From: Eledone cirrhosa
Taxonomy: Eukaryota
NCBI GenBank assembly: GCA_964016885.1
Contig: OZ024741.1
Span: 155,496,001-155,560,000 of the forward strand
DNA length: 64,000 nucleotides
Reading direction: 5' to 3'
Numbering within the stretch: the first letter of the stretch is position 1; every line of letters starts with the position of its first letter. Position numbers and translations under genes: made by a program. The notes beneath the pieces are model-generated. The model ran no database searches, was not told the origin of the DNA, and saw nothing but the letters and a program-made list of their open reading frames with translations. Below are positions 5,037 through 61,794 of this stretch, piece by piece.

Positions 5037-6075
5037 TTAATTGTAAGTTGTGATGTTGCTATTCCATTCATGCTTTCTATTTAATTTTGGTTCGAGTTCA
5101 TTTATGTTATTTGCCTCTGTGATTTGCCTAAACATTGCGTCTTTTCTGTGTGTAGATTCTATTTTTATTTCTATGTTCTCTAATTTACCCTTATGTTCTA
5201 TTTTAGCATGTTGGTAGAGTACAGATGATTCTTTACTATCTTGAAGCTCTCGCCAGTGTTCATTTATCCGTTCTCCTATACTACGAGCTGTCTCACCTAT
5301 GTACACTATATTCTTATCTCTACATTGTCCTTCAGTACATCTTATGCTATATACTACATTTCTAGTTTTACAGTTAATATGGGGGCTTAATTTACAGATT
5401 ATACATTTCTTATCTATACAGGGAGGTCTTTGAAAAGGGTATGTATTGCTAATAAGTGTTTTTATGGAGGTACCTGGTCTTTCTACTATCTTAATATTGA
5501 GTTTATGTTTATCTAGAGCCCTTCTGAATTTGTAGGCTAATTCACCTCTAGGGGTTGTATTGATGAACATTACACTCTGGTATTTTTTGCTATCATACCA
5601 TGAGTTTATTCTATTAACCTTATTCCTAGTTCTTTCTATTCTATTCCAAAATTTGCTCCTATACAAGGGGCAGGTCCCATTTGTATCATTATTTACCATT
5701 TTTTCCCATTTGGTTCTGGCTCCTCTATATACTCTGATCTTATCTCTCTGATTGTAACCAGAGAACTGCATACGGTGGATGAAGTGTTGTATGTGTCTCT
5801 CTAGTTCTTTGGGGTTGCACATGCGGGACACGTTTCTCATCACCCACACCAAATCCGCAATCAGTATGTTGATTTTGGTGTGGTCCGAAACAGCTGAGTT
5901 TCGGTGGATCAGATATTTGGAAGTCATGGGTTAGGCGTAATGGGAATGGAGGATCTGTTTTTTGTTATTGATAGTATCTAACCAGAGCTCTGTGTCTAGT
6001 ACAGGTAATCGATGGTTTGGGTGTTTGCTTGGGTAGTCTATAGTAATTCTAATACTCTGGTGGATGGAGTTAGCA
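5037..6075 (-). mobile_element. 5'-truncated Penelope-like retroelement (RT thumb + Cys linker + GIY-YIG endonuclease)
   Basis: ORF 5037-5927 has CxxxxCxxC...C followed by NVVYSIRC...VYIGETARSIGERINEH and a C-terminal EA..I..LEPKLN. An upstream frame reads LPVLDTEL (RT palm/thumb). Confidence 0.9.
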
Positions 6076-6094: not shown

Positions 6095-6560
6095 GATAAA
6101 TGGAATAGAATGAAACGAAATTTCATTTCTCACTCTTAGTACGGCACTTACTTAAATGTAAGTATTCATTCTATTCAATTTATCGTTTTCGGTGTGCCCG
6201 GCGGACTGAACTCACTCGATATGCACATTAGGCTGCTCAGCCGTTAATATACATAAGGAAAGTATATACTTTCAGACGTTCAACCATCTGGCAGGAAGGT
6301 ATACGATGCTGACGATAGCTAATAAGTTTGAAACTAGTACATCGTTCCTGTGTCAGTGTTGAACAAAAAGGTGACGTGGTTGCCTAAACACTGTACGGCG
6401 TAATTCGGGCTGTTTGTTTGTTTACAAACAAACAAACCGAGCATTATAATAAATGTTCGGTAAACCGATACCTGCATATATATATATGTGTGCATGTATG
6501 TATATATATACATACTACTGTACGTCTGTATACATATATGTATGTACGTGTACATACTTA
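6095..6560 (+). mobile_element. Non-coding repeat family carrying hammerhead H3 (copy 1)
   Basis: Homologous to 12365-12866 and 30885-31410; no coding capacity; ends in TA/TG microsatellite. Confidence 0.78.
6303..6345 (+). ncRNA. Minimal type I hammerhead (family H3)
   Basis: ACGATG CTGACGA T AGCT aata AGTT T GAAA CTAG TA CATCGT: 6-bp stem I, palindromic stem III (ACTAGT), GUA triplet. Confidence 0.87.
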
Positions 6561-14111: not shown

Positions 14112-17100
14112 TTACAGTTTGATCAAAAGAATGCTTTTGATGACAACATTCTTAGTTGACTGGGTATCCCACAGAAACACTCTGACATTTTCTTTTCTTT
14201 TTCCGCGGCTAAGGGCCACACACAGTTGACCGTGTTGGAATACAGGTCGTTCCAGATAAACCAAGACGTTTTCCATAGTTTGTCCTTGTGCTTTATGAAT
14301 AGTCATAGCGAAGCACGATTGAACTGGGAATTGGCTTCGCTGCAAAGGGATATCCTAACCTTCGGATAGATTAATTCTTATTCTAGGTATCATAACGATT
14401 TCATTTCTGAAAGCAGCAGTGTTGATTCTTGCTACTATGAGATTGTCGTGCAGTTCTTCCACGATCAGTGGCGTTCCATTACAAAGCCTTGGAGGATTCA
14501 AGTTTCTCATAAGAATTATTGGCGATCCTTTTTTCAATTCCAGGTTATGTGGTGGCAGTCCTGATAGTTCAACTGAATCAAGGAATTCAGTCGGGAAATG
14601 AGTGGCATTGGTACCATCACTCACAGAATTATAGGATCGGTACTCTTTTATGGTTCCAGGGAAGCGTCTGATACAGGTGGAATTGATGCTTCTCATCATT
14701 TCATTGAGAGGTACTAAGATGCAATTTTTCGAAAACACTTCAGCTGGATTGTCGAATGAGGGGTAGATGAAATCAATACATTCTTCCATAGTTGTTGCTT
14801 GGAGAACCATTTCTTTTGGCAAAATAATTTCCTCATTTTCAGTTTTTTTAAATCTTATCTTCTCCAATATCCAATAGAAACTGTGAATAGTCTCCTGCTC
14901 CCCCACCCAATCACATGTTTGTCTTCAACTGAAATATTTTGAAGCTTCGCCATAAGTAGGATTTTTTAATGCAGGCGTTTTCCACGTCCGTTTCATTTCC
15001 CCTTTTCACTACCGGAAGAAGCTGACGGAAATCGCCACAGCAAATTGTCAAAATTCCACCGAATGCCTCATTGTTGTCGCATATGTCACGCAGAGTGAGG
15101 TCAACAGCTTCGAAGCTTTCCCCCCGAATCATAGGACACACAACCCAAACAATCAGCCTTGTATGCTGGAAGAGGTTTGCCGTCTTTGAGTTTTTATCAA
15201 TGTTGCACAGACCATTTTCTTTCACTACTATCGGTATTTTGAACCTAGAATGCGCTGTTCTTCAACCAGGCATCAGTGTTGCGGCAATGCCAGATGACGC
15301 AACAGCAATAGCCACGTCACCGTTTCCCCTGACTTTTGAAAGAATTAAGTTAATCAGGAATGTCTTTCCTGTTCCACCTGGAGCGTCATTGAAAATCAAT
15401 GCAGATGTGTTCGTCTCTAAACTGTTACAAATGAAGTCATACACGTGTTTTTGTTCACTATTCAATAGAGGCCCCGTCTCTTCTATAAATCGTCGCTGCT
15501 CTTCTCTGCTGTATTGCAATTCATGCAATAACTCCAAATTGCCAATATCCTGATTAGCAACAATATTATTTGGCCTTGGCAAATTAAAGTCACTAAGACT
15601 TTTGCCCAGGTCATTAAGTTTGTCTTCAAAATACAGAAGACATTGATCATAATGTCTCTCGCTAATCAAAAGGTTAGAGTTTCTGGTAGCCCTTCTTTTT
15701 ATTTGAAGGTAATCCTCAGACAGCGAATGCTTAAATCGAACCCATAAAGCACTGGAATTGTCAATTTCCGTATTTTTGAGGAGCACGATGAATAGATCTC
15801 TCATGGCTTTGGGAAGCCTTGTTCGCTCAGCATCTTCCAGAGTCTGCTGCCAATGATCATCCGATTGAAGCAAACCTTTCTCTCTGTAGACATCTTTGAA
15901 TAATGTCAGGAGTTCTCCATCACACATTTTCAAAGAGTTGAAGGATACTGGCCCTTTGACGTGATGCAGAAGGAGTCTTAAATAATACAGGTCACCACTT
16001 CGTAGAGAAACAGTGTATACTCGTCCCAAAACGTTCGCCTCAAAAATCCCTGGATACTGCTCAACTGTTTTCCCCACCTTTCTCCTTTCCCATCTCTTAT
16101 TACTCCAAGTGTAAAACTTTGGTCATCTTAGCCATGTTATTGTTTACTTTAACAGCAGCATTGACGCGAAAGAAGATTTGGTTTTCCTCAGGTAGATGAA
16201 CTTGAAGGCGAACTACGGCCGGTTCTCTCTCATGAATTGGAAATCCAAGTACCAAGGCAACAGCTTCTGAAGGACCGATATATCTTCCTGTTAAATACTG
16301 TATTATCTCATCTTCCCTGTTCACTCCAAACATTGCTTGATCACTGCCCTTCATGGTATATTTGATAACGTATTTGATCGATTTCACGGAAGAGCACATC
16401 TCTACGTGTAGGTGGCAGTTGAACAGTTTTAATAGTTTCATATTGTAGGGAACCACCCATTCCGAAGTTATATTTCGGCTTCCCCTTCCTTCTTGGTGCT
16501 CCTCAAATCCTCCCATTCCTGGAGACCGTCTTCTGTACACAGTATAAGAGTCCTCTGCACACAGTGTATATTCATTGAAAGGCTTAGGGTACCGCTTACT
16601 ATACGTTCCATCTTTCCAACACAGCGAATTGTTAGAGCAATTCGGACCGTGGATCATGTGCTTCAGCACCAATTCATGACCCTCTGGATCTTTGTTTGGA
16701 TCTGGTATTTCGGCTTGAACAAATTTATCATATTCATGCGGTCTGGGCTTGGAGGCTTCATTGAGCCATAGCAAACATGAGGAAGACCTCGCTTTTGATA
16801 TTCGACTATCAGCACGTAAGCAATGCACTTGCCAAATAGGCCATCTACTCCAGTAAGATACTTTCTTGACAGTTTCCGCTTCAGGTCAAATACTCTGGCA
16901 ATTAAATCTGGCCTGTCGTGTGGCTTCTGTTTCAGGAATAGGTTTTGCCGGATTTCAGGCCAGTTTGGATTGCATGTCATTGTGATGAAGAACGAAGGAT
17001 TGCCGTACTTCCGTATGTACATCATGGCATCCTGGCATCGCTCCATCATATATCTCGGTCCACCGACAAATGTGGAAGAGAGTATGATTCGCCTGCCAAT

Positions 17101-18746
17101 ATTGCGAAAATCGTCATCATCATTCAATGCGTCAGTAAGGCCCTTGTCTGTTGTAAATCGCAATGATGGTTGATTCATTCGGATGTATTGCAGTCTATCT
17201 CCTTCAATCTTCGCAGCCATGTCAACCAAATATTGCTGAAATAAACAACCGCCTCTGAGAAGTTGGTTGAATTCATTCTCATGGTTCATTATTCGATAGG
17301 CATAGTAGCGCATTGGCGTCAACTTCTTGTTGTTGCTCATTAACAGCTGATGATGCCACCCGTCATCGCCAAAAGGAAAAAATAGAACATACTGCAAACT
17401 GTCATAGGACCGATGAAACTCTGAGATTATTTGCAATTGTCCGCCTTTTTCTTTCAACACAATGTGCCGTGCTTTTGCTTGAAGTTCGGTGCTGTTTTGT
17501 ATAATAACGGCAATTTCGTTTGCAGTTCGTGCATTGAATCTTCTCTCATGTTCCATTGCTGGTCTCCTATCAGGATCAATAATAATCGAAGCTTCTGGAA
17601 TATTTTTAATTTGTTCTTTTGCCATTCGAAATGAAGCAACGTAAGGGTTATATTGTCTGAGTATTATTTCCAATAATTCAACTATGTCGCGCTGAATGCC
17701 ATCGTTATGGAGTACCCTGATCCTCAAATCAACACTATCCTGAGGATCCAAGAAGTAAATTTGAAGAAATTGGGTTGTTCATTGGGATTAGGGGTTAAGG
17801 AACCGATGTAATGGTGAATTTGACCATGAATAACGATAGAAGGATTCCATCCACTCCTTGAGGAACGAACTTCTTCGGCCCCAAAAGATGTCATTTGGAA
17901 CAGGCAGTTGTATTGTCTGAGGTTCTTCCTGAACTCGTTTGCCCTAGGTTGATCAGTACTAAATAAACTGTGAAGTTCCTGGGGTAAAGGCTGCAGATTC
18001 CCCAACCTGACTTTTCCATTCATCCAGCAAAAGTTAGCAGTTTCACCATGAAAAAGCATTGCATGACAACAGACACAGATCTTATTCATCTGTCCAACAT
18101 CAGCAGAGAGGTCACGTCGTTGAACTGTCCATGCTCTATCCCTAATGGCTTGTTGGCAAATACGTTCAGTTCTCCAAGCGTCCGATTTATGATCTCTCCT
18201 TCTTCTGTCTCTTTCCCTCTGTTCCGCCTGACGCTCAGCTCTCCGACCATCCGATTAATGATCTCTCCTTCTTCTGTCTCTTCCCCTCTGTTCCACCAGA
18301 CGCTCAGCTCTCCGACCATCCGATTCATGATCTCTCCTGCTTCTGTCTCTTTCCATCTGTTCCACCAGACGCTCAGCTCTCCGACCATCCGATTTATGAT
18401 CTCTCCTGCTTCTGTCTCTTTCCCTCTGTTCCACCAGACGCGCAGCTCTCCGACCATCCGATTCATGATCTCTCCTGCTTCTGTCTCTTTCCATCTGTTC
18501 CACCAGACGCGCAGCTCTCCGACCATCCGATTCATGATCTCTCCTGCTTCTGTCTCTTTCCCTCTGTTCCGCTAGACGCGCAGCCCTTGTTTTATCAGTC
18601 TCATCGATCCTTCTATTCGCATGCCTGTCCCGATCTTGTTGTCGTTGACCACTATCTTGTTCACCTTCTTCGGCTCTCCTTAGCCGTGCTTTCTTTCCAC
18701 TATCGATAGACCAACCAGATGTTTTCTTTCTTCCTCGTCGAGGCAT
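14112..18746 (-). pseudogene. Helitron RepHel (HUH Rep initiator + Pif1-family SF1 helicase), frameshifted
   Basis: Rep motifs FFITMTCNPNW, VEYQKRGLPH, YVIKY; helicase motifs DAPGGTGKT, GDFRQLLPV, LCNGT, FAMTIHKAQGQT, HGQL(C)VALSR; split across about 8 ORFs. Confidence 0.95.
18190..18580 (-). repeat. 60-bp coding tandem repeat (~6.5 units) in the Helitron N-terminus
   Basis: Encodes the charged 20-aa unit RERDRSRRDHESDGRRAARLVEQ (ORF 18255-18746). Confidence 0.9.
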
Positions 18747-25742: not shown

Positions 25743-28700
25743 TTAGATGCAACAGTTTTTGAATGTTTTACATATTTTTACTGTTCCATTAATGGATTGT
25801 ACTTGTAATTTCCTAACTAGTTGTGTTCTTTCTGTTACCGTGAAGCCTAGCTTCTCAAGATTTGTATTGAGGCAGTTACTAACATACCCCAGTGCCCCAA
25901 TAATCACAGGCATAAGTCTGAAGGTGTAATCAAGGTGGAGTATCTGCAGATTTCTCATCAGTTCTGCATAAATATTCTCCTTTTTGCTAATCTTTGATAT
26001 TATATTGGCATCTGCTGGGCAGCTAATTTCCACTACTTTGCATACTTTCTTCTCCCTGTCCCATACCATAATATCTGGTCTGTTATGCTTGCATTTTATT
26101 GGGGTTTTTACTGGAACATTCCACCAGTACTCTTTCATATTATGTACATGGATGTCTTCCACATTGCCGTAGCTTTTAATGTGTTTACTATCGGGGCTAT
26201 CTTTTTTACGGATTGCATTGTACAGTGTTTTGGCCACTACATGATGCCTCATAGGTAGATAGTACCGCGATGACATCTTTGGACAGCTGCTGATGACATG
26301 GGTGACATTTTCGATGTTAGTTCTGTAGAGTCTGACTTCTTATCACATCTAGGTGTTTTGCCTACATCCCTATCTCTTTTATGAATCAGGTATTTCGTGT
26401 TAATTTCATGTTCTTGGATTGCAAAAGCGTATCCTTCAAAGTGGGAGCCAATATAGCGGTTGTTGGTACAGATAGACTACTTTCCTTATCTATATTAATC
26501 TCACTATGGAGCTTCCTGGCAACATAGCCATGCGTGATTTTTTGCTGATAAGCATGCAGTTTTTCATCCATGGATTCACTGCAATACTGTTGAGCGACTT
26601 CTCTGGGTGTGAGATTTTGATTATCATGCAGGGAATATCTCTCAAGGAGTTCCTTCCCAACTCTCATGATCTTATCTGTTTCATGCCGATAGACTTGCTC
26701 AAGAGAGGGGCTGCTACGCGTCGAGGTTCGTAGATGTTGTCGGAGGGATATGGTGCGAAATTCAAATGCTGTCTGAACTGATGTTAGGCCTCTGCCTCCC
26801 TGCTTACGTTTCAAGTAAAGGTGGTCTATGTCACTATTGATGTGGAAGTTTCCGGTGTTGTTTAGTATTTTTCGAGTTCCAACATCAACTGCTCGGATTT
26901 CGTCTATCGTCCAATTGAGTATTCCAAACGTTGGTGTTAGGACAGGCACAGCAAACACATTGTGAGCCACTGTTTTGTTTTGCGCTGAGAGTTCCGATGA
27001 CCAAATCTTTTTTAATCGAGTGTAGTACTCCCTGGTTACGCGTTCCTTATTACAGTTACCATTATAGAATATGTTCTCATCTATCCCCAATTATCTGTAG
27101 CAGTTCTCATCAGATATCGGTGAAACAGTTAAGCCATTGATTTCAATGTTGCTAGATTGGGTTGTTGCTTTTCCCCGCTTTACAGTCATGTATGAGCATT
27201 TATCTTGGCCAAACTCCATTCCTATATCCTTTGAGAACGTTGTAACCAGGTCAAGATTTTTCTTCATCCCATCTATGTTCTTGGCATAGAGTTTCAGATC
27301 ATCCACAAAGAAATTATGGGTTAGGTTCGTACTTCTGTCCTCCTGTGAGCCAATGATGTATGCTTCACATTTCTTGAGCAGAAAGGACAAGGGGTTTAAT
27401 GACAGGATGAATAATATCACAGAGAGACTGTCTCCCTGAAATATACCCCTGCGATATTTTATTTTATCAGTGAAAATAGAGTCCTCTCTCTCTGTCTTTA
27501 ACCTTAGGATAGTAGCCCAAGAAGAAGACAGCTTCTCTATGGCTCTGACAATAATGTCTGGGACTTTAGCAAGCTGGAGGGCCTCTATCATCCAAGAGTG
27601 GGGAACAAAATCGAGAACGCTCCTGTTGTCCAGCCAGACTGTAGCCATATTCCTCCTAAGTTGTCGCACCTCCGACATTACAGTTTTGTTGATTAGGAGT
27701 TGTTCAGCACATCCCCAAACCCCTTTCTTTCCAGCTGCTTGTTCATCTGTGATGATGTTATTATTTTCACAGTGATCTTGGAGGAATAGGTTCAGGCAGG
27801 CTGTATACATGTTAGTCATCAGGCTCTGGCATGCAATGGGTCGGTAGATTTTTGCCAAGTGGGTATCTTTGTTCTTGGGGACCAGTAATGTTTGTGCTAA
27901 TGTCAACCATTCTGGTATAAGTGTATCTCCATTAAGAACTTGTTGGTAGAGGTCAGTAAGATACCTCCGATAGAATATCAGTTTTTTTTTACCAGTAGCC
28001 GACAATCATGTCTCTTCCTGGTGTTTTCTCATCTTGGAGTTTTCCTATCGCAGTCTCAATGGTTCCCTCACTTATTTCGTATGATTTTGTTGTAGTGTAG
28101 GAGCAATAGTTCTTTCGGATTTCTTTTAGCCACACTGCATCTTGGTTGAAATTCTTCTTTTCACCCCATATTTTTCTCCAAAAGGAATCTATGTCTTTCT
28201 GGGATGGGGCCTCAGTGACACTTATTATTTTGTTCTTCATATATGTATAGACTGATGTTTGGTTTCGTCTGAATCTTTTATTAAGCACTTTTCTCTCATC
28301 TACCTTCTTCAGGTATCGGCGTTTTTCGCTAACAGTTCTCAATTCTTGTTTGAGGGTGATCAGCTTATATGGAAGAGTTCTGGTTCTACTGTTACCAAAC
28401 ATAGTCTCTATTTTATTTTTCACTCTTTGTTCGTGAGTAGTGAGGTATTTTTGTGTTTGTTTGCATGTAAAGAGCATTGTCACATATCCTATGGTTTTTC
28501 GTAGGTCAGCAATCTTTTTTTCTATTTTAGTTATATATGATGGTATTTTTGGTGGTGTTCTGTTCTTGTTAGTATCCCTGCTATCACCAAGATAATGCTT
28601 CACTGTCGTTGCTAAGGCATATGAACAGGCGTTGATTTGCCAAAATGTTGGGGTTTTAACCGTCGTAAATATTCATCCCCTATTTTCTCAATAACACGTA

Positions 28701-29849: not shown

Positions 29850-29884
29850 CTTAACGTTTCGGACGTTAATCCTTCATCAGAATA
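29850..29884 (-). ncRNA. Minimal hammerhead (family H6)
   Basis: Minus strand: TT CTGATGA A GGA ttaacg TCC GAAA CGTT AA. Palindromic stem III; stem I is weak. Confidence 0.65.
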
Positions 29885-35125: not shown

Positions 35126-35160
35126 TCACCTGAGGAAGGGCTTATGCCCGAAACGTCGTC
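35126..35160 (+). ncRNA. Minimal hammerhead (family H8)
   Basis: AC CTGAGGA A GGGC ttat GCCC GAAA CGTC GT. Stem I is only ~2 bp; followed by AATAAA and (TA)n, like a pLTR end. Confidence 0.68.
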
Positions 35161-37899: not shown

Positions 37900-37965
37900 G
37901 AAGACAATGTGACACGGGAGGGTATACCTATACCTAGCCAGGCGCCAGCCGGACGGGCCAGCTAG
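36441..37965 (+). mobile_element. Probable non-autonomous Helitron with internal tandem duplications and a nested SINE fragment (37257-37355)
   Basis: Starts A|TCTGTAATATTAAAAAG and ends with a GC-rich imperfect hairpin and CTAG|T. Internal repeats at 36480-36620, 36780-36940 and 37665-37750. Confidence 0.55.
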
Positions 37966-37979
37966 TATATATATATATA

Positions 37980-38869
37980 CGAGGTGTGTCAGAAAAGTTC
38001 CAGGACTGATGTCACAAAAGATTTATTTCAAACCCAAACTTCACACTAAGAGTTTTCTCCTTCAAAGTGATCCCCCTGGAGTATGTAACTGTAATCTTAG
38101 CTTTCTGCAGCGATCAAACTTTTTTCTTCATAATTTTATATACATGTCCTCTGATTCAGGTCGTCAAGCAATGAGCACAGAGCAACGAACAAACTTGAAA
38201 ACTCCGTCAGAAGCACTGGGATTGCTGCAGCAAGTGTATGAACATGAGACGATGTCACGCTCACGTGTTTTTGAATGGTGTAAGAGGTTTAAAGAAGGAC
38301 GCGAGGACGTGGAAGATGACCCCAGGAGCGGAAGGCCCTCAACAACCAGGACTGAGGTCAACGTTGGGCGCGTCAGGCAGATGGTGCGTAGTGATCGTCG
38401 GCTGGATGATCGACTGATGGCAAATGAGCTGGGCATGAATCGGGACAGCGTCTGGAAGATTCTCACTGAAGGTTTGGACATGCGGAAAGTCTGCGCGAAG
38501 ATGGTGCTAAAACTGCTAAACGATGACCAGAAGGGTCGACGCATGCAAGTGTGCCAGGACATCCTCGAGCGTCTTGAAACCGAACCAGACTTGCTAGGTG
38601 CAGTCATCACCGGTGATGAATCATTGATCTTCGAGTACGATCCGGAGGGGTCCGTTTTGAAGACGTGGACGACATCATAAAGGCCACGACGACGGAACTG
38701 CGGAGGATCCCGGAAGAATCCTTCCAGGAATGCAGCGTGGCAGAGAAGGATGGAAAAGTGCATTAGACTCCAGGGGGATTACTTTGAAGGAGAAAACTGT
38801 TAGTGTGAAGTTTGGGTTTGAAATAAATCTTTTGTGACATCAGTTCTGGAACGTTTCTGACACACCTCG
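37980..38869 (+). mobile_element. Internally deleted Tc1/mariner (mariner) DNA transposon
   Basis: ~70-bp TIRs (CGAGGTGTGTCAGAAA...CACACTAA) with TA flanks. Transposase remnant W.KRFKEGREDVEDDPRSGRP, MRKVCAKMV.K, ITGDES; the rest of the catalytic domain is lost. Confidence 0.95.
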
Positions 38870-39120: not shown

Positions 39121-39289
39121 ATTATTATTATAGTTGTTGTTTTCTTAAGGCCCGATCGCTGGTGATGGTGATGGTCATAGTGATGGTGGTGGCAGATTGT
39201 GATGGTGATGGTGATGGTGGTGGCGATGGTGGTGGTGATGGTGGTGTTGATGGTGGTGGTGATGATGGTGGTGATGGTGGTGATGGTGG

Positions 39290-41180
39290 TGAATCAGCCG
39301 TCTGTCGTCAATGAAGATTTCCTCAATCTCATTCCAGAAAAACCTGTGAAAGTAGCTCTCGCAGGACCACCGACGCTTGTGGAGGTTGCAGTAGCTATCT
39401 CGAAGCTGAACAGTGGAAGGTCTCCAGGTATGGATGGCATACATGCAGAGCTCCTAAAATATGGTGGTGAGAGACTTCTGCAACATCTTCACTCTTTGTT
39501 TGGCAGGATATGGGCTAGTGAATCCGTACCTGAGGACTGCAGAGATGCAGTAATGGTGGTCTTGTACAACGGAAAGGGCAACAAGAACGATTGTGGAAAT
39601 TACAGAGGTATATCATTGCTTTCTGTCGTAGGAAAAATGTTATGTAGGTTGCTTCTGGACCGTCTGCTGACACACATTGCAGATTGTGTTCTTCATGAAA
39701 GTCAATCAGGTTTTCGTGTTGGACGCGGCACTACTAATATGATATTCTCAGCTAGATAGCTCCAGGGGAAGTGCACGGAACAAGGTTCGGATCTATATCA
39801 GGTTGTTGTCGATCTGACAAAAGCTTTCGATACTATTAACAAAAATGCATTGTGGAAGGTTCTCCAGAAACTTGGTTGCCCTGATAAGTTCCTTGCTTTG
39901 GTTAGGTCTTTCCATGACGACATGAAGGCTTGGGTTAATTTCAGAGCCTATCTCAGTAACAAATGGAGTGAAACGAGGGGATATTCCAGCACCGACCCTG
40001 TTTGCCATATACTTTGCAATGGTTTTCTGTATTGCATTCAGGAATTGCGAGCATGGTGTTTACATCCGATATCGAAACTCAGTCAGCATATTTAACATCA
40101 GGCGCTTTGCTGCAAAAACAAAAGTATTTACATCAATCATAAGAGACTTCTTGTATGCAGATGATTGCGATCTTGTAGCGCACACAGAGAGTGATATGCA
40201 GCACATTTTGAATGCATTTGTTGATGCTTGCACTGCCCTAGGATTGACTGTCAGTCTCAAGAAAACTGTCGTCATGTAGCAACCTGCTCCTGGTAAGCAG
40301 TACAGTGAACCAAATATCTATGTGTATGGTAAACGACTTGGAGTGGTTGATCAGTTTGTCTACCTGGGAAGCACTGTCAATCGAAACAGCAACCTTGATA
40401 ATGAAATTCAACTCAGGATTAGGAAAGCAAGTGATGCTTTCGGAAAGCTAGAAAGGCGACTCTGGGGTCGACGAGACATATGCAAGAAGACAAAGGTAAA
40501 GGTATACAAGGCATGTGTGCTCTCTTCTCTTCTTCCTGCCTGCAAGACCTGGGTCACGTATCGACACCACCTTAAATAATTGGAGCGTTTCCATCAGATG
40601 TGTCTCAGACGGATCCATGGCGTTCACTGGAAGGACCATATCAGTGATGCCGAGATTTTGGAAAGCCCTCTGTGTGACAGTATAGAAGCTCTTGTGCTTA
40701 AGCAAAGTCTCCGTTGGAGTGGTCACCTTGCCAGGATGAAGGATTCTAGAATACCAAAACAACTCTTTTATGGAGAGTTAGTTAAAGGAAAACGAGCTCC
40801 ACATAAAACAAAAAAGAGGTATAAGGATTCGTTGAAAGCCTCTTTGAAAGACGCTAACATATATGCTGATACATTGGAAAATGTTGCTGCTGATCGTAAT
40901 AAATGGAGAAAGACTGTATACGAGTGGAAAGTTGCCTTTGAGGCATCTCGAATCGCATATGAGAAAGTAAAGAGGGATGTGAGGAAGGGCATTACTGTTG
41001 CACTTCCAGACAGCAAAGATCCTCCTATGGCGCCGACATGCAGCGTCTGTGCGAGACTCTGCCTAAGCAAAGCCGGCTATTCCCAGTGAATGTTTTGGTT
41101 GCCAACTCTGTGCAAGACATTTTAGATCATTGGCTGGGCTAAAAAGCCACATTCGATCGCAGCACACTGTTAATTGTTAT
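39290..41180 (+). mobile_element. 5'-truncated RTE-clade LINE (RT + C-terminal C2H2 fingers), degenerate
   Basis: SPGMDGI, CGNYRGISLLS, DLTKAFD, FLYADD, FVYLGS, LRWSGHLARM..RIPKQLFYGEL, then CSVC and CQLC...LAGLKSHIRSQH. Confidence 0.93.
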
Positions 41181-41181
41181 C

Positions 41182-41287
<106 letters not shown>

Positions 41288-41304
41288 ATGTATATATATG
41301 TGTA

Positions 41305-41353
<49 letters not shown>

Positions 41354-41358
<5 letters not shown>

Positions 41359-41452
41359 TGGTTACACAACAGTTAGTTCACCATACCGAGAACAATTGTT
41401 TCACCTTAGCGGATCCTCAGCTCGGAAACCGACCTGTTGTGTAACCACTTAT
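41354..41452. mobile_element. ~100-bp element with 19-bp terminal inverted repeats enclosing a hammerhead, inside (TA)n
   Basis: ATAAGTGGTTACACAACAG (41354-41372) / CTGTTGTGTAACCACTTAT (41434-41452). Confidence 0.72.
41386..41425 (-). ncRNA. Minimal type I hammerhead (family H9)
   Basis: Minus strand: CCGAG CTGAGGA T CC gctaa GG T GAAA CAATTG TT CTCGG. Palindromic stem III, GUU triplet. Confidence 0.85.
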
Positions 41453-41532
41453 ATATATATATATATATACACACAACTCGTCCCATGGACTGAGTGCTCT
41501 ACCACTACGGATATTACCTTCCAGTGTTCCAC

Positions 41533-41635
<103 letters not shown>

Positions 41636-41835
41636 TACACATATATATACATGCACACATGTATATATATGTGTATGTGTGTGTGTGTATATATATATAT
41701 ACACACGTCCCATGGACTAACTAACTCGTCCCATGGACTGAGTGCTCTACCACTACGGATATTACCTTCCAGTGTTCCACCACTATGTATATATATATAT
41801 ATATATAATTATTATTATTATCATCATCATCATCT

Positions 41836-50513: not shown

Positions 50514-53500
50514 TTTCTTTATTAACCACAAGGGTTTACATAAAGTAGACATTAAGGACAGTGCAGGACAATGCAGGACGGTACAAATGGGCATTTCTGC
50601 GTGTAAAAAAAAACAAAAACAGAGGATGTAACAAAAATAACAATGAAAATAACAATGAAAAATTCCCCAATAGGGGGGAGACTTCGGAGGGACATTTGTG
50701 GAGAAAGCCCAGTAAAAGCCACAATGACCCTGACCACCAAGGCAAGTGCCCTCTCCCAGTTTTCCACTCTTGTTTACAGATATATACTCAGAGTCGGCCC
50801 ATTCACTCGGGCCATTCTTGCTTCTCTCACCCATCTTTCAACAAAATGCTGGGAAGAGAGCACTTCCTTCTCTACTCTGATTTTCCTTTTCAAATGAAAT
50901 TTGAAAAAGTCAATCAGAGCATCACCGAAGAGGTAAGTGCTCGTCTTCAGCCCTTTCAAACGTGTCCACCATACTATCTCTTTCGCCATGGCCACCAGAC
51001 AGATAAAAACTGCCTGCCCTTCCCGGCTAAAGGAGGAGGGCGGGGCAATCCTCACGATAGACTCAGATGATAGCTGGATCCGTCCTAAACGCGACAGCAG
51101 GTGTTCGACATAAACCCACAAGTCAGCAATTTTCGGACACTGGACGAGTGCGTGCAGGACGGTTTCGTCGCCCTGCGCGCATCTCGGACATGCCCGGCTG
51201 ACGGCACCTCCATGCCTGTAGAGTTTATCCCGAACTGGCAAGGCTCCTCGGTAGCACTGCCAGGCCAGAGATTTCTGGAAGTTGTCCATAGGCCCTGGCC
51301 CGAAAGTTCTTCCGAAGAGATTGGCTAGTTGATTTTCGTCGACGCCTAGAGTTTCCCCAAGTACGTCGTCGCTCTTCCCCTCCACTAATCCTCTATAGAA
51401 CGCCGAGGTGGAGTTTCCACCGATCACATTGCCCGATTGGTCGAGGGCTGTGAGCGCCTGAAGACATTCCAGTCTCCAGGCGCTCCCTCTCGGTCTTCGC
51501 TTGACCCAGGACTGCAGCTCCGTCAAGGAAACGAGCTGGGGAAAAACGCGTCTAGCAAACGGCGACCACACCTGATCACCGTCGAGGAAGAGGTGGAGAT
51601 GTCGTAGCCTGAGCGCGTGCCTGCGCATCATCAGCCACGGCATGCCCAGCCCTCCACGTAGCGGGTGTTGACAACAGATGGACCGCCTGACCATCGGAGC
51701 ACGTCCCTTCCACAAAAAGCGAAAGAGCAAACGCTCCAGCGCAGTCAGGCGAGGCTTAGGACAAGGTACGACGGTTAGGCGGTAGCAGATGACAGACGCG
51801 ATGTACGCGTTAGCCACCTCCGCTCGACCTTTCAGGGATAGCTTCCTCTCCGCCCATTTCTGGGTGAGAGAAGCCACCCTGCTCGTCACCTCGTCCCAGT
51901 TTTTGTCCGTCTGGAGGTCTGGACCGAACCAGACCCCTAGCAATTTAACCGGTCCGTCCGTCCAGCCCCCGACGACGCTGTTGGACGGCATGGACCTGCC
52001 TCTCCAGGTGCCGAGCTGCAGGCCCACTGACTTTTCCTGGTTGATCATTGCTCCTGTCACCGCTTCGTATTCTCTTAGTGTAGTGCCGATCGCCTCGATG
52101 TTTTTGGCGTTCGACACCACTACGGTGACATCGTCGGCATATGCTGACACGGATCTTCCGCATCCTAGTTCGCGCGGGACCCCTCTCAACGTCTCCAGCT
52201 TGTGCAGTAATGGCTCGAGAGTCAGTACGTACAATAGGGACGAGAGAGGACATCCTTGGCGGACCGAACGCATGATGTTGAACGGTTCCGAAAGGTGACC
52301 GTTCACTCTCACTACAGAGCAGATGTCGCTGTGCATGGCAGCGATCCAGCCTCTGAAGACGGGCCCAAAGCTAGCCGCCCTCAGGACTGCCGTTAGGTAA
52401 CGATGGTCGACCCTATCGAAGGCTTTCGACTGATCTAAATTGATCAAAGACCCACCCGTGCCAGGTTCCCTAGCTACCCTCTCTACGATGTATCGCATGA
52501 GGTGGAGGTTGTCGTGGATGGATCTGTCGGGAATGGCGCATGTCTGTGCCTCTCCCACCAGAGCACCAACGACAAGCGCCAACCTCTTTGCTAGCACCTT
52601 GGTCCATCCCTCGATCCGGCCCGCCACTGCCCCCGAACAGTTGAGCGAAGTGTCGCTGAAAAGCTTCACACATTTGCCCGGGATCGAGTAGCATGCGCCC
52701 GTCGTGATCCACCAAAGACCGGATCGTGGCTTTGTTGCCACGACGCGCCTCCGCCACTCGGGCCCATTGAACGGCTTTCGTCCCCTCGTGTCTGAGAGCA
52801 CGCACCTTAGCTCTGACAACGCAGCCTTTGTGCTTTGCATTGAAGAATTGGTCAAGGGCCAATTTCGCCGCAAGCGCGTCGGTCGCGATGCCTTTGCTAA
52901 GCGCCTCATCTAATTTTCTAACTAGTTCTCCCTCTGCTCTATTTTTCTCTATTGCTAAAGTCTTACTAAACCTAATGAACTCTATTCTAATTGCTCTTTT
53001 CAAAGCAAACCACCACTTGTTGTTGACGATGGCCCCCGTCAGCGCCCGCTTAACTAGTTCGCTAATCCGGTCTCTGTAGTCCTTGCGCGCTGGTAAGGAC
53101 GCGTTTAGCTTCCAGTAGCCGGGTCCTCGCCTATGAAGCCTATCTAAGTCAAGCACACAGATCACGAATTTGTGGTCCGTGTAGCTGACTATCTTGAATT
53201 GTGGACAGCCTATGCTAGACTTATCTATTTCCCTACAAAATACTCTATCTAGATATGATCTGGATGACCCTATGCGATTTGTCCAAGTCTACATTGGTAC
53301 ATTCGGGAAATCCATTCGGTACCTGTCAGACAGTTCAAAACGTCTGAGCAGGTTGGTGAGACTCTTGCACCCTCCTTCCCTATCCACTAATCCCACACAA
53401 TCCCAGCGTGCATCTAAGATCCCGTTCCAGTCGCCCACTAACACTAAAGAGCGGGACGTTCCAAGAAAGGTCTCCAGACGCCGGAAGAAATCAGGCCGCC

Positions 53501-56083
53501 CTGCTCCTGTCGGGGCATAGACGGCCACTAACCTGAAAGCTTGCCCGTCTCCGCTGGTCGCGTCCAGCACCACCAACTTACCTTCTGGGTCCAGGAAGAT
53601 GACCCGTATGGCAAGATCCAAACCTCTCCGAAAAAGCACAGCAACTCCTCCCCCCGATCCCGGACGGCTGGGAGATGCGTACACATCGTAGCCGCCGAAG
53701 ATCGGTGCGAATGCCTGTGCTTCGGAGATTCTGGTCTCGCTGATGGCCACTACATCTATGTTTAGTGACCTGAGGTCGTTGAGCAGGTGGCCCTGCTTCC
53801 ATGACGACCCCAAGCCACGCGCATTTATGCTGCCTATTCTGAGTGAGGTCATGTTGAAAAGGAGTGGAAAAGATGGGAAAGACCACTTACCTTACTTCTC
53901 GTAGGGGAAGGACGGTTTTTCCATCCTTTTCACTGCTTGTGGCCTCCTCAGGAAGGATGTCCTTATAAATCCTCCTGGAGAGTGCTTGTCGGAAGTCTCC
54001 GATGTCTTTGGGGAATTTTTGTTTTAGTGTCATGTACGTTTTCTGTGTGATGCGAGTGATTTGTATGTGTGGAGGTGGTGTGAATTTTGGGGTTGTTGTG
54101 TAGTCTTTTTCTGTGATGCTGGTGTTGTGTTGGATGTAGTGCAATAATTGCTTGTTGTTCAAATTTAATGCTGTGTAGTGTGTATCGTTTTGGTTGTTTT
54201 GTTTTGTTTGCGTTTGTTGTGGGTTTGTTTCTGTTTCGCATTTTGGTGACTTTTGTGGTGTAGGTGATGGTGGTGTTGGAGTTAATGATGGTGATGGTGT
54301 TGGTGTTTGGGTTGATGGGGTTGGTGATGCTGGTGTGGATGGTGGCATATCTGTCCTAACTTTTTTGTTTCTTAGTTTATTTGTTTCCCTCTGTATTTTG
54401 TTTTTGGAGGGGGAAGGAAGAGAATTTTTTCTTTTTTGGTTTCTTTTTTTTTTTCCGGATATCGTTTCCCACTCCTCGTCGTCACAATCTGTCTCCAGTT
54501 GTGATAGGCCGGGGAGTGGAAAATCCTCCACAGGCGTTAGTTTTGGTTGTGGCATGGTGGATGGTGTAGGCGCTGGTGCTAGTTCTGAAGCGTTGGGTGG
54601 TGGTGGTGTTGGTTTTGCAGGTGGTGGTGGTGGTGTTGGTTTTGCTACTGTTGCTGGGCTTGTTGCTGTTATAGTTGCTTCTGTTGTTGCTGCTACAGTT
54701 GTTGCTTGCATCTCTGCTACTGGTGGTGTTGATGGTTGTGTCACTGGGGTGGGTAGGAGAGGTGGCCTCAACCTTTTAGCCTGAGGGCAGAAAGCCCTTA
54801 GGTGGGTTCCTTCACCACAAACGACACACCTACGTCTTCTGCCCTCGACAATTACCGTGAGGTGGCTGCCGTCAGTGAGGTCTATTACCTCTGGGATCTC
54901 CTCAATGCTTTTTTGGTCCGCTTGGATCAGGAGCCCCATCCCAGATCCGGACCAGTTCTCCTGCTTTTCTTTTGCTAATGCTATTATTTTTGTGTTGGCT
55001 TCGATGCCGGAGAGGACGGCTGCTATTAGCCAGGGAATTTCGATGGCCGGTGGAACGTGGGTCACCCTGATCTTTACGAGTCTCTGGCCACAATAGCTTG
55101 GGACGAGTGTGAAGTCGTCACTTCTTAATGGGGCCATGGAGTGTTCTCTAGCCTCCTCTGGTGTTTCAAAGAACACGTCCACGGTTCCATACTTTTGCCC
55201 ACGTCTGATGTGGGTTTTTCTTGCCCACACATGTCCCAAAGCTTTTTGGATTTGGGACTCGGATGCCCGTTCCACTCGGCGCGATTTTACATTTATTGTT
55301 CTATACGACACGGTGCATAGGCGCCGATGCTCCATTTTATTAGGTGGGGGGGGGGGGGGTGATGCTGACCCTGTACCCATCTTTCTTTACCATTTGTTTG
55401 GCATTTTCTAAATCTTCTTGAGTTACGGTGAATGCTTCGAATTGTTTTGCTACTCTGGCGAAACTGAGTGGGCGTTTTATAATGTCATTGTTGTTGTTGT
55501 TGCTATCGTTAATATTAATTTTAGTTTCAGTTGTGGTGGTGAGGTCAGTCGTCTTTGGTGGGGAAGAGTCCATTTTGCTTGATTTCATTTCGACATCACG
55601 AGTTAATATATTTTTTTCTTCTTTTGTTTCTGTTGTCGCGGTGGTGGTGGTGGTGGTGGTTGTCACGGTGGTGGTGGTGGTGGAGGCTTTAACAACTGCA
55701 GTCATTGGTAATGGCGGGAAATGAATGTCTGCCTGAGACAAATTTAAAATATTGCTACTGCTTATATTTTTTTTTGTGTTGGCAAACGTAGTAACATTTA
55801 CAATGGTGGTGTCGGTGTGAGGTGTTAATTTGTGAGAAAGACTTTCAGCTGCTTCGTGCAGAGGTGAATTAGCCATTTTTTTCAAATAAATTTTTGATAA
55901 TAATAAAAGTTTAAATTTTGGGCACAAGGCCCCAATCTTTTTGGGTGTCCTTTTCGGAAAACAATGTATGTGCGCTTATAAACAGTTAACAATAACATTT
56001 TCCATAAATGACAATTTTTAACAAACGGAAATAACAAACCTTTGAGGAGCTCACGATGATACGATTTACTACGTAGGTCGCCA
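50512..56083 (-). mobile_element. L1/Tx1-clade LINE (copy B) with a ~341-bp RT deletion and a premature stop
   Basis: Very similar to copy C; ORF1 53887-55873, ORF2 50774-53852; flanked by (TAA)n on both sides. Confidence 0.95.
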
Positions 56084-56350
56084 ATTATAATAATAATAAT
56101 AATAATGTTTTCTTTATTAACCACAAGGGTTTACATAAAGTAGACATTAAGGACAGTACAGGACAATACAGGACGGTACAAATGGGCATTTCTGCGTGTA
56201 AAAAAAACGGAGGTTGAAATAAAATAACAAAGAAAAATTCCCCAATAGGGGGGAGACTTCCGAGGGACATTTGTGGAGAAAGCCCATTAAAAGACCACAG
56301 TGGCCCTGACCACCAGGGCAAGTGCCCTCTCCCAGTTTTACACCTTTAAT

Positions 56351-59300
56351 TTACAGACACATACTCAGAGAAGGCCCATTCATTCGGGCCATACTTGCTT
56401 CTCTCACCCATCTTTCAACAAAATGCTGGGAAGAGAGCACTTCCCTCTCTACCCTGATTTTCCTTTTCAAATGAAATTTGAAAAAGTTAATCAGGGCATC
56501 ACCGAAGAGGTAAGTGCTCGTCTTCAGCCCTTTCAAACGTGTCCACCATACTATCTCTTTCGCCATGGCCACCAGACAGATAAAAACTGCCTGCCCTTCC
56601 CGGCTAAAGGAAGGGGGCGGGGCAATCCTCACGATGGACTCAGCTGATAGCTGGATCCGTCCTACACGTGACAGCAGGTGTTCGACATAAACCCACAAGT
56701 CAGCAATGCTCGGACACTGGACGAGTGCGTGCAGGACGGTTTCGTCGCCCTGCGCGCATCTCGGACATGCCCGGCTGACGGCACCTCCATGCCTGTAGAG
56801 TTTATCCCGAACTGGCAAAGCTCCTCGGTAGCACTGCCAGGCCAGGGATTTCTGGAAGTTGTCCATAGGCCCCGGCCCGAAAGTCCTTCCGAAGAGATTG
56901 GCTAGTTAATTTTCGTCGACGCCAAGAGTTTCTCCAAGTACGTCGTCGCTCTTCCCCTCCACTAATCCCCTATAGAACGCCAAGGTGGAGTTTCCACCGA
57001 TCACATTGCCCGATTGGTCGAGGGCTGTGAGCGCCTGAAGACATTCCAGTCTCCAAGCGCTCCCTCTCGGTATTTGCTTGACCCAGGACTGCAGCTCCGT
57101 CAAGGAGACGAGCTGGGGAAAAACGTGTCTCGCAAACGGCGACCACACCAGATCACCGTCGAGGAAGAGGTGGAGATGTCGTAGCCTGAGCGCGTGTCTG
57201 CGCATCATCAGCCACGGCATGCCCAGCCCTCCACGTAGCGGGTGTTGACAGCAGATGGACCGCCTGACCATCGGAGCGCATCCCTTCCACAAGAAGTGAA
57301 AGAGCAAACGCTCCAGCGCAGTCAGGCGGGGCTTAGGACAAGGTACGACGGTCAGACGGTAGTAGATGACGGATGCGATGTACGCATTCGCCACCTCCGC
57401 TCGACCTTTCAGGGATAGCTTCCTCTCGGCCCATTTCTGGGTGAGGGAAGCCAGCCTGCTCGTCACCTCGTCCCAGTTTTTGTCCGTCTGGAGGTCCGGA
57501 CCGAACCAGACCCCTAGCAATTTAACCGGTCCGTCCGTCCAGCGTCCGACGACGCTGTTGGACGGCATGGACCTGCCTCTCCAGGTGCCGAGCTGCAGGC
57601 CCACTGACTTTTCCTGGTTGATCATTGCTCCTGTCACCGCTTCGTATTCTCTTAGTGTAGTGCCGATCGCCTCGATGAGTTTAGCGTTCGACACCACTAC
57701 GGTGACATCGTCGGCATATGCTGACACGGATCTTCCGCATCCTAGTTCGCGCGGGACCCCCCTCAACGTCTCCAGTTTGTGCAGTATTGGCTCGAGAGTC
57801 AATACGTACAATAGAGACGAGAGTGGACATCCTTGGCGGACCGAGTGCATGATGTTGAACGGTTCCGAAAGGTGACCGTTCACTCTCACTACAGAGCAGA
57901 TGTCGCTGTGCATGGCAGCGATCCAGCCTCTGAAGACGGGCCCAAAGCCAGCCGCCCCCAGGACTGCCGCTAGGTAACGATGGTCGACCCTATCGAAGGC
58001 TTTCGACTGATCTAAATTGATCAAAGCCCCACCCTTGCCAGATTCCCTAGCTACCCTCTCTACGATGTATCGCATGAGGTGGAGGTTGTCGTGGATGGAT
58101 CTGTCGGGAATGGCGCATGTCTGTGCCTCTCCCACCAGAGCACCAACGACAAGCGCCAACCTCTTTGCTAGCACCTTGGCCAAAATCTTGAACTCTGTGT
58201 TTAGCAGGGTTATGGGCCTAAAATTATCTATGTTATCCCCCTTGTTCAGATCCTTTCTCAGCAGCGCCACCGCTCCTCGGCTCACAGAGCTGGGAATTCT
58301 CCCGTTCTGTTGCCAGTTGCAGTAGACGTCCGCCAAGAGGCCTCCGAACAAGTTTGGCATTTGTACGTAAAGTTCATAGGGCAGACCATCCAAACCAGGC
58401 GATTTGCCCCTTGTGCAACTAGTCATTGCATCCCGTACTTCAGCGGTTGTTATCGGCTTTTCGCAACACTCCGCCTCAATGGCCGAAAGCCGCGACAGTC
58501 CGTCGAGGTAGACACTAAAGTCCATCCCTCGATCCGGCCCGCCACTGCCCCCGAACAGTTGAGCGAAGTGTCGCTGAAAAGCTTCACACATTTGCCCGGG
58601 ATCGAGTAGCATGCGCCCGTCGTGGTCCACCAAAGACCGGATCGTGGCTTTGTTGCCACGACGCGCCTCCGCCACTCGGGCCCATTGAACGGCTTTCGTC
58701 CCCTCGTGTCTGAGAGCACGCACCCTAGCTCTGACAACGCAGCCTTCGTGCTTTGCATTGAAGAATTGGTCAAGGGCCAATTTCGCCGCAAGCACGTCGG
58801 TCGCGATGCCTTTGCTAAGCGCCTCATCTAATTTTCTAAATAGTTCTCCCTCTGCTCTATTTTTCTCTATTGCTAAAGTCTTACTAAACCTAATGAACTC
58901 TATTCTAATTGCTCTTTTCAGAGCAAACCACCACTTGTTGTTGACGATGGCCCCCGTCAGCGCCCGCTTAACTAGTTCGCTAATCCGGTCTCTGTAGTCC
59001 TTGCGCGCTGGTAAGGACGCGTTTAGCTTCCAGTAGCCGGGTCCTCGCCTATGAAGCCTATCTAAGTCAAGCACACAGATCACGAATTTGTGGTCCGTGT
59101 AGCTGACTATCTTGAATTGTGGACAGCCTATGCTAGACTTATCTATTTCCCTACAAAATACTCTATCTAGATATGATCTGGATGACCCTATGCGATTTGT
59201 CCAAGTCCACATTGGTACATTCGGGAAATCCATTCGGTACCTGTCAGACAGTTCAAAACGTCTGAGCAGGTTGGTGAGACTCTTGCACCCTCCTTCCCTA

Positions 59301-59770
59301 TCCACTAATCCCACACAATCCCAGCGTGCATCTAAGATCCCGTTCCAGTCGCCCACTAACACTAAAGAGCGGGACGTTCCAAGAAAGGTCTCCAGACGCC
59401 GGAAGAAATCAGGCCGCCCTGCTCCTGTCGGGGCATAGACGGCCACTAACCTGAAAGCTTGCCCGTCTCCGCTGGTCGCGTCCAGCACCACCAACTTACC
59501 TTCTGGGTCCAGGAAGGTGGCCCGTATGGCAAGATCCAAACCTCTCCGAAAAAGCACAGCAACTCCTCCCCCCGATCCCGGACGGCTGGGAGATGCGTAC
59601 ACATCGTAGCCGCCGAAGATCGGTGCGAATGCCTGTGCTTCGGAGATTCTGGTCTCGCTGATGGCCACTACATCTATGTTTAGTGACCTGAGGTCGTTGA
59701 GCAGGTGGCCCTGCTTCCATGACGACCCCAAGCCACGCGCATTTATGCTGCCTATTCTGAGTGAGGTCAT
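56351..59770 (-). CDS. Tx1 ORF2 (APE endonuclease + reverse transcriptase + CCHC), one in-frame stop at 56906-56908
   Basis: GSINARGL, SET, GDWN, TDHK; SPGLDG, DQSKAFD, RQGCPLS, YADD; CPRC..ET..H.LVQC. Copy B has CAA (Gln) at the position of the stop. Confidence 0.93.
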
Positions 59771-59804
59771 GTTGAAAAGGAGTGGAAAAGATGGGAAAGA
59801 CCAC

Positions 59805-61794
59805 TTACCTTACTTCTCGTAGGGGAAGGACGGTTTTTCCATCCTTTTCACTGCTTGTGGCCTCCTCAGGAAGGATGTCCTTATAAATCCTCCTGGAGAG
59901 TGCTTGTCGGAAGTCTCCGATGTCTTTGGGGAATTTTTGTTTTAGTGTCATGTACGTTTTCTGTGTGATGCGAGTGATTTGTATGTGTGGAGGTGGTGTG
60001 AATTTTGGGGTTGTTGTGTAGTCTTTTTCTGTGATGCTGGTGTTGTGTTGGATGTAGTGTAATAATTGCTTGTTGTTCAAATTTAATGCTGTGTAGTGTG
60101 TATCGTTTTGGTTGTTTTGTTTTGTTTGCGTTTGTTGTGGGTTTGTTTCTGTTTCGCATTTTGGTGACTTTTGTGGTGTAGGTGATGGTGGTGTTGGAGT
60201 TACTGATGGTGTTGGAGTTACTGATGGTGATGGTGTTGGTGTTTGGGTTGATGGGGTTGGTGATGCTGGTGTGGATGGTGGCATATCTGTCCTAACTTTT
60301 TTGTTTCTTAGTTTATTTGTTTCCCTCTGTATTTTGTTTTTGGAGGGGGAAGGAAGAGAATTTTTTCTTTTTTGGTTTCTTTTTTTTTTTCCGGATATCG
60401 TTTCCCACTCCTCGTCGTCACAATCTGTCTCCAGTTGTGATAGGCCGGGGAGTGGAAAATCCTCCACAGCCGTTAGTTTTGGTTGTGGTGTGGTGGATGG
60501 TGTAGGCGCTGGTGCTAGTTCTGAAGCGTTGGGTGGTGGTGGTGTTGGTTTTGCTGGTGGTGGTAGTGGTGTTGGTTTTGCTACTGTTGCTGGGGTTGTT
60601 GCTGTTATAGTTGCTTCTGTTGTTGCTGCTACAGTTGTTGCTGCCATCTCTGCTACTGGTGGTGTTGATGGTTGTGTCACTGGGGTGGGTAGGAGAGGTG
60701 GCCTCAACCTTTTAGCCTGAGGGCAGAAAGCCCTTAGGTGGGTTCCTTCACCACAAACGACACACCTAGGTCTTCTGCCCTCGACAATTACCGTGAGGTG
60801 GCTGCCGTCAGTGAGGTCTATTACCTCTGGGATCTCCTCAATGCTTTTTTGGTCTGCTTGGATTAGGAGCTCCATCCCAGATCCGGACCAGTTTTCCTGC
60901 TTTTCTTTTGCTATTGCTATTATTTTCGTGTTGGCTTCGATGCCGGCGAGGACAGCCGCTATTAGCCAGGGAATTTCGATGGCCGGTGGAACGTGGGTCA
61001 CCCTGATCTTTACGAGTCTCTGGCCACAATAGCTAGGGACGAGTGTGAAGTCGTCACTTTTTAATGGGGCCATGGAGTGTTCTCTAGCCTCCTCTGGTGT
61101 TTCAAAGAACACATCCACAGTTCCATACTTTTGCCCACGTCTGATGTGGGTTTTTCTTGCCCACACATGTCCCAAAGCTTTTTGGATTTGGGACTCGGAT
61201 GCCCGTTCCACTCGGCGCGATTTTACATTTATTATTCGATACGACACTGTGCATAGGCGCCGATGCTCCATTTTATTAGGTGGGGGGGGGGGGGGGGGTC
61301 AGGCTGACCCTGTACCCATCTTTCTTTACCATTTGTTTGGCATTTTCTAAATCCTCCTGGGTTACTGTAAACGCTTCGAACTGCTGTGCTACCCTGGCGA
61401 AACTGAGGGGGGGGGGGGTTATAATGTCATTGTTGTTGTTGTTGCTATCGTTAATATTAATTTTAGTTTCAGTTGTGGTGGTGGTGACGTCAGTCGTCTT
61501 TGGTGGGGAAGAGTCCATTTTGCTTGATTTCATTTCGACGTCACGAGTTAATTTATTTTTTTCTTCTCTTGTTTCTGTTGTCGCGGTGGTGGTGGTGGTG
61601 GAGGCTTTAACACCTGCAGTCATTGGTAATGGCGGGAAATGAATGTCTGCCTGAGACAAATTTAAAATATTGCTACTGCTTATATTTTTTTTTGTGTTGG
61701 CAAACGTAGTAACATTTACAATGGTGGTGTCGGTGTGAGGTGTTAATTTGTGAGGAAGGCTTTCAGCTGCTTGTTGCAGAGGTGAATTAGCCAA
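59805..61794 (-). CDS. Tx1 ORF1 (gag-like, single CCHC knuckle, Pro/Thr-rich, basic patch), frame break at the C17 run 61282-61298
   Basis: CVVCGEGTHLRAFC; KKKRNQKRK. The two ORF pieces join as RVSLTPPPPPNKMEHRRL, colinear with the unbroken segment in copy A. Confidence 0.85.

Follow-up and report, generated by a model that had tools for sequence, protein, structure and literature searches.

A 99-bp element at positions 41354 to 41452 of the window (the whole 64,000-nt stretch of Eledone cirrhosa DNA analyzed here) places a hammerhead motif between inverted termini inside a TA microsatellite, which raises the question of whether it is a mobile unit or a piece of a larger retroelement. A sequence-only reading had favored a minimal mobile unit with MITE-like termini and had offered an extreme fold-back remnant of a Penelope pLTR as the alternative. 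The inverted repeat behind that proposal was real. Its two perfect 19-bp arms (41354-41372 and 41434-41452) were the two matches found in the window with up to 3 mismatches allowed, where 0.00 were expected; 17 bp of each arm belonged to the element, and the outermost 2 bp belonged to the microsatellite. The minus-strand hammerhead was also confirmed, with stem I CCGAG/CTCGG, core CTGAGGA, GAAA, and the palindromic ACAATTGT. Pure TA repeats had been described on both sides. The left run was as described (41317-41356, 20 units), but the right run gave way after 19 nt to CACAC and then to 64 nt of the same retroelement (41475-41538).

When the genome was searched with the 99-mer for copies sharing its boundaries, only the window itself matched positions 1 to 99 at 100% (57 matches; 40 scored of 1,582 candidates). 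Positions 26 to 99 of the query were 100% identical to many loci. Specifically, a 27-mer from the shared 3' end had 5,094 exact matches in the genome, and a 24-mer across the 6-nt inversion junction (41428-41433, minus strand) had one match in 2,995,841,428 bases with up to 1 mismatch allowed. In 30 fetched loci, the part from the hammerhead to the end was common to all, and the sequence before it varied, consisting of plain TA, unique DNA, inverted arms of differing length, or long common upstream sequence. Similar mini fold-backs were collected with a gapped sequence pattern, and the resulting 47 loci carried 44 distinct junction strings. The identical junctions (one string found three times and one found twice) showed stem I microhomology and occurred in both tail polarities. 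The mobile-unit reading fails because the junction is single-copy and the boundaries of its homologues, which run into a longer pLTR and ORF, are variable; the sequence-only reading had itself named both findings as grounds against a mobile unit. Its alternative, the fold-back remnant, matched the data.

It is highly improbable that the 99-mer or similar mini fold-backs move as units, whether MITE-like or retrozyme-like. Short copies are very common, and two ~185-bp fold-backs, L190 (G000:C3:237028166) and L238 (G000:C10:50930591), have a complex three-part junction in common in unrelated flanks, with exactly two matches in the genome. This pair hints at re-mobilization or gene conversion and bears on other fold-backs, not on the window copy; gene conversion or recurrence could explain it. 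Against unit mobility stand the single-copy window junction, the differing junction strings, the microhomology and both tail polarities at the repeated ones, termini that are Penelope-like ends and not transposase TIRs, and the absence of tandem hammerheads. The element resembles MITEs in its shortness, inverted termini, and TA flanks. However, MITEs are present in many copies with the same termini and interior and carry the TIRs of a DNA transposon, whereas the window unit is single-copy, and its arm is the 3' end of a pLTR, an inverted repeat generated incidentally by retrotransposition. Animal non-LTR retrozymes (Cervera and de la Pena; Li et al. 2026) are similarly short, noncoding, and derived from Penelope-like elements, and they have a type I hammerhead. 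Unlike them, the locus has neither tandem units nor repeated unit boundaries; the window holds one hammerhead of this family, and no tandem array is present at the locus. The claim that the element is far shorter than described retrozymes was wrong, as Li et al. (2026, bioRxiv 10.64898/2026.07.22.740005) give consensus lengths of 51 to 972 bp for animal retrozymes.

The parent element was found by stepwise upstream extension to near-full-length copies. It is a ~2.6-kb Penelope-like element (PLE) with a pLTR-ORF-pLTR structure and ~5,000 related ends in the 3.0-Gb genome. One copy, L081:1500-4461 (G000:C2:72347999-72350960), contained direct pLTR repeats of 385 bp at 96%, a spacing of 2,577 bp between its hammerheads, and an open frame of 722 codons with a YRDD core and a VIY..YVG EN motif. 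Contigs from public runs (four runs, at most three samples, two studies) extended beyond both arms, into tail sequence and into upstream pLTR. Among the public contigs listed, none crossed the window junction, although this does not show that the junction is absent from them. The family ORF had no Pfam match to RT or GIY-YIG, and a PDB sequence search returned nothing informative. The domain call was based on motifs, 680 homologues, and an Atlas lead (GIY-YIG on 22% of the members of one cluster).

Craig 2021 (PMC8557442) defines the Hydra clade by RWK, DKT, a CxCx5C linker, the lack of CCHH, CxxC and CxH, a size of <3 kb, and (TA)n insertion. The family ORF had the CxCx5C linker, no CCHH inside GIY-YIG, and CxxC and CxH near its end; family protein P0001 contained DKT and RWR, and the five aligned homologues reaching that region had RWK or RWR. 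In the case of L081, motifs indicated a single ORF with RT and C-terminal GIY-YIG between pLTRs in a unit under 3 kb. The family also had a canonical pLTR hammerhead and was inserted in (TA)n, as 78 of the 98 sampled ends abutted a TA run. These features are shared with the C-terminal EN+ PLEs of the Hydra clade (e.g., Hydra-1_Obim and Hydra-1_Ajap), as described by Craig 2021, as are a hammerhead of the form CTGANGAT..TGAA, in which stem III is palindromic and the cut site often has a U, and inverted truncated 5' copies. The family differs in having RWR instead of RWK, a tail of ~65 nt compared with the 30 to 40 bp described, and a hammerhead distinct from all of those in the compared part of File S2; a motif search of that supplement was negative. 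By its motifs, the family appears to be a new member of the Hydra-type PLEs with RWR for RWK, and its structural type is already known. Identity with Hydra-1_Obim was ruled out because the hammerhead is different. Neptune/Nematis, our first guess, was dropped on clade definitions, as the CX2-5CxxC linker and the CCHH within GIY-YIG were absent. We found no description of the family in the open-access literature searched.

We then characterized the ends of the family using the first 100 matches of the 3' 27-mer, in position order, on contig C1; 98 copies were left after removal of two from a segmental duplicate. The duplicate (L123/L124, at G000:C1:35.17 Mb and 36.10 Mb) is inverted and 98.5% identical over 6.2 kb. 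The 3' ends fell into two classes ~65 nt apart, with 46 long ends, 45 short ends, and 7 others. The ~65-nt extension between the two classes is the PLE tail, and a 27-mer from it had 3,357 exact matches. In several copies (L146, L177, L191, L207, L208, L212, and others), (CT)n preceded (TA)n, at long and short 3' ends alike; CT is also the native terminus of the element there, and these repeats possibly reflect slippage or reiterative synthesis at priming.

Inverted 5'-truncated PLE copies with a one-sided tail are known (Craig 2021, PMC8557442; Arkhipova 2013, PMC3846280). Among our 47 fold-backs, two had no scoreable second end. A script classified 40 of the remainder as one tailed and one short arm and five as displaced, and four of these five were reread as contiguous tails with early mismatches or small deletions. 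Thus, the tail was on exactly one arm in 44 of the 45 scoreable fold-backs. The sole exception was the window copy, in which the tail resumes 24 nt out; no other short-plus-short fold-back was present among the 45, which came from the 47 pattern-selected loci. In the unbiased sample of 98 copies, a count by hand gave one tail in 15 of 17 head-to-head pairs and tails on both arms in 2 of 17. The one-tail counts were put to binomial tests. A search of the open-access literature found no paper that quantified the one-tail rule or the 5'-end pile-up described below.

Work on Poseidon PAc of Anolis has traced the PLE tail to two internal RT start sites and has shown in vitro that both target strands are cut and extended (Frangieh 2024, PMC11167929). 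Our family resembled that system, as described there, in its two fixed 3' ends (would-be RT starts) in AC-rich sequence, both of which follow ACCACT here, in its AT-rich target, and in the lack of any indication that ends coincide with the cut site of the hammerhead. It differed in belonging to another clade and in having an ORF that starts ~290 nt after the hammerhead and not inside it.

With these ends in hand, the locus can be read in parts. The target (TA)n microsatellite, which lies outside the short 3' end (41317-41355), is followed by a 5'-truncated sense arm on the minus strand (41356-41427), which is the last 72 nt of the pLTR by identity to family loci, ends at the short 3' end, and has no tail. 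Past the junction lies the inverted arm (41434-41450, plus strand), the apparent "TIR", which is a 17-nt copy of the element's own short 3' end (19 bp with the TA overlap) and a known PLE structure. A 24-nt TA/CA stretch (41451-41474) then replaces the first 6 nt of the tail. This stretch has a 25-nt inverted match to 41311-41335, and we infer that it is an inverted copy of the left flank edge, although it is of low complexity. The 64-nt piece beyond it is a tail fragment on the plus strand that ends at the long 3' end and is in register with the inverted arm. Farther to the right, exact copies of the left flank (41281-41330) occupy 41623-41701, first 37 nt inverted and then 44 nt direct; a 30-nt test word of the left flank occurred in the window only in that flank and in these two copies. 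A second tail fragment, recognized by its sequence, follows at 41707-41786 (plus strand) and has a short partial tandem on the 5' side.

We are highly confident that the 99-mer derives from the 3' pLTR of this abundant Hydra-motif PLE as a 5'-truncated, head-to-head fragment present in a single copy, likely produced by a GIY-YIG cut in (TA)n and an RT stop after ~70 nt. This reading builds on features that were directly observed (family identity, boundaries that vary between copies, a pair of fixed 3' ends with ~65 nt between them, TA flanks, and a unique junction). In the proposed mechanism, the GIY-YIG endonuclease of the element would cut the (TA)n tract, and RT would halt after ~70 nt, aborting the insertion. 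The two target strands would likely be primed at two different start sites of the same RNP, as suggested by the in vitro data of Frangieh 2024 and the one-tail rule, and the two short cDNAs would be joined head to head to give one tailed and one tail-less arm. In the window copy, flanking TA/CA DNA was likely copied into the tailed arm, and this interruption would explain why the inner 99 bp resembles a neat TIR element. The whole event was likely one complex insertion spanning ~41356-41786, of which the 99-mer is only a part. Several observations count against this proposal: the ORF has no Pfam match to either domain, among the scoreable fold-backs only the window copy breaks the one-tail rule, some pieces consist of a tail alone (at least 2 of 30), two unbiased pairs were tailed on both arms, many junctions are near-symmetric, and no empty site was seen.

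Near-symmetry fits another origin, in which one cDNA stops, folds back through stem I self-complementarity and microhomologies, and self-primes the second strand, after which the endonuclease resolves two staggered sites and leaves one tail. Self-priming was proposed by Arkhipova 2013 (PMC3846280), and endonuclease resolution was proposed as the source of the tail by Craig 2021 (PMC8557442). We regard this snap-back origin as a possibility to be held tentatively. Many head-to-head pairs are symmetric to within ~15 nt, the recurrent junctions (three and two identical) use stem I microhomology, and a 4-bp hairpin is located at the inversion junction of the 99-mer. However, under snap-back the arm that extends further 5' should be the tailed one, and the tail was more often on the less far-reaching arm (34 of 47 versus 12, in the pattern-selected fold-backs, after rereading by hand). 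Some pairs are also strongly asymmetric, by hundreds of bases, and both strands were extended in vitro (Frangieh 2024, PMC11167929). Two-strand priming and cDNA snap-back are indistinguishable with these data.

Because the window copy breaks the one-tail rule, the tail fragments could instead be separate insertions, with the 99-bp fold-back and the two fragments piled independently into one TA tract. That (TA)n is the target of the family and that tail-only fragments exist would allow this, but we consider it unlikely: the first tail fragment picks up 6 nt past the end of the arm, oriented as the one-tail rule predicts, the same TA/CA word derived from the flank stands before both tail fragments, amid exact left-flank duplications, and a second short-plus-short fold-back was absent from the 45. 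A further idea, which we consider rather improbable, is that the pLTR yields a short (~150-nt) hammerhead-plus-tail RNA that is retrotransposed in trans by the autonomous protein, with both cut strands primed at the two tail starts. If so, this RNA would be a minimal non-autonomous PLE template, and it would explain the one-tail rule, the 5' pile-up, and why TA tracts hold thousands of very small fold-back hairpins; a few such short-template fold-backs (L190/L238) may have moved again.

The 5' ends of the 98 copies spanned +36 to -2223 relative to the hammerhead core, and they piled up near the hammerhead. Specifically, 40 of the 82 copies at risk ended between -23 and +7 of the first C of the core, compared with 16 of 98 in the 30 nt before this interval and 9 of 42 at risk in the 30 nt after it. 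Further upstream, the rate of 5' ends was ~10-fold lower than around the pile-up. The sample was from one contig (C1), and the arms of one insertion are not independent. Non-inverted copies, roughly classified, also showed the pile-up (10 of 29 at risk). The median 5' end was -4 in both tailed and tail-less arms (31 and 33 ends), so the pile-up depends on RNA position and not on the length of the cDNA. Hammerhead cleavage was rejected as the source of the 5' ends, as 0 of 98 lay within 1 nt of the predicted start of the 3' product. This agrees with the finding that the hammerhead is dispensable for insertion in the Poseidon PAc system (Frangieh 2024, PMC11167929). A general stall at hammerheads was also rejected, since only 2 of 30 ends of a second hammerhead family fell in the interval, although many of these ends are internal tandem units. 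None of eight near-full-length copies ended in the interval at the 5' pLTR, which argues against a single main transcription start and also against a general stall. Short pLTR transcripts or RNP-limited drop-off may have caused the pile-up. The pile-up at the 5' edge of the hammerhead accounts for the window copy appearing cut down to its ribozyme.

The ribozyme itself is a putative type I hammerhead on the minus strand (41386-41425), with a predicted cut after 41391 at the triplet GUU. It comprises stem I (41425-41421/41390-41386), the core (41420-41413), a stem II of only 2 bp between U and U (41412-41404), TGAA (41403-41400), and the palindromic stem III (41399-41392). An Rfam scan made no hammerhead call at the locus and returned only microsatellite-driven miRNA matches below the gathering score; the assignment was made from the motif and the match to the Hydra layout in File S2 of Craig 2021 (PMC8557442). 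A U-flanked stem II, a palindromic stem III, and a cut-site U are common among the Hydra hammerheads in that file, so these features, unusual at first sight, are normal for the clade; the listed stem II helices are 3 to 7 bp, longer than the 2 bp of our family. Subfamily differences over 166 hammerhead copies fell in the free core position, loop II, and outer stem I, with part of the core fixed by the search pattern.

The transcript had been expected to form one rod ending in the ribozyme. The rod was indeed predicted for the minus-strand RNA of the 99-mer (-46.9 kcal/mol, z -8.15, 0 of 200 shuffles as good), but a folded ribozyme at its end was not, given a predicted stem I pair probability of ~0. 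In the 99-nt rod, the hammerhead-constrained fold was predicted to lie 11.6 kcal/mol above the minimum, compared with 5.5 to 6.9 kcal/mol in three native contexts, and the clamp is thus predicted to disfavor the ribozyme fold. A predicted dimer co-fold extended stem III and kept stem I. Cervera 2014 (PMC4209133) described opposite-strand hammerhead pairs 100 to 700 bp apart and low activity that needed dimers. In our models, the hammerhead would be inherited cargo that is misfolded in the rod and needs a dimer partner, and the 99-bp fragment is likely inert.

Other elements were observed in the window. The second hammerhead family, with a Hydra-type core, was at 6309, 12726, 30909 (minus strand), and 31173 and in L261-L267. 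It is a noncoding tandem repeat of 456 to 502 bp with head-to-head inverted ends, its 28-mer had 17,739 exact matches, and it had no blastn similarity to L081. It looks like a true non-LTR retrozyme, and a literature search on octopus retrozymes gave no account of this family. Two further minimal hammerheads of the A-bulge type (29857-29880, minus strand, and 35130-35153, plus strand) are probably pLTR remnants of other PLE families. A remnant ORF of another Hydra-like family (7673-8692, plus strand) was 35% identical to P0001, and a fragment at 5037-5930 (minus strand) was judged by eye to be a PLE-like thumb/endonuclease. Pfam matches at 14355-18254, 27091-28005, 37913-38680, 39184-41089, and 50774-61298 marked a Helitron remnant, LINE RT fragments, a mariner-like HTH remnant, and tandem APE-RT LINE copies.

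The locus itself, a dead fragment whose structural type is already known, does not matter alone. However, how PLEs form tandem and inverted insertions with a one-sided tail was named as unresolved by Craig 2021 (PMC8557442), and the family is a useful natural data set for this question. Its near-strict one-tail rule and the position-fixed drop-off at the hammerhead provide constraints for in vitro systems such as that of Frangieh.
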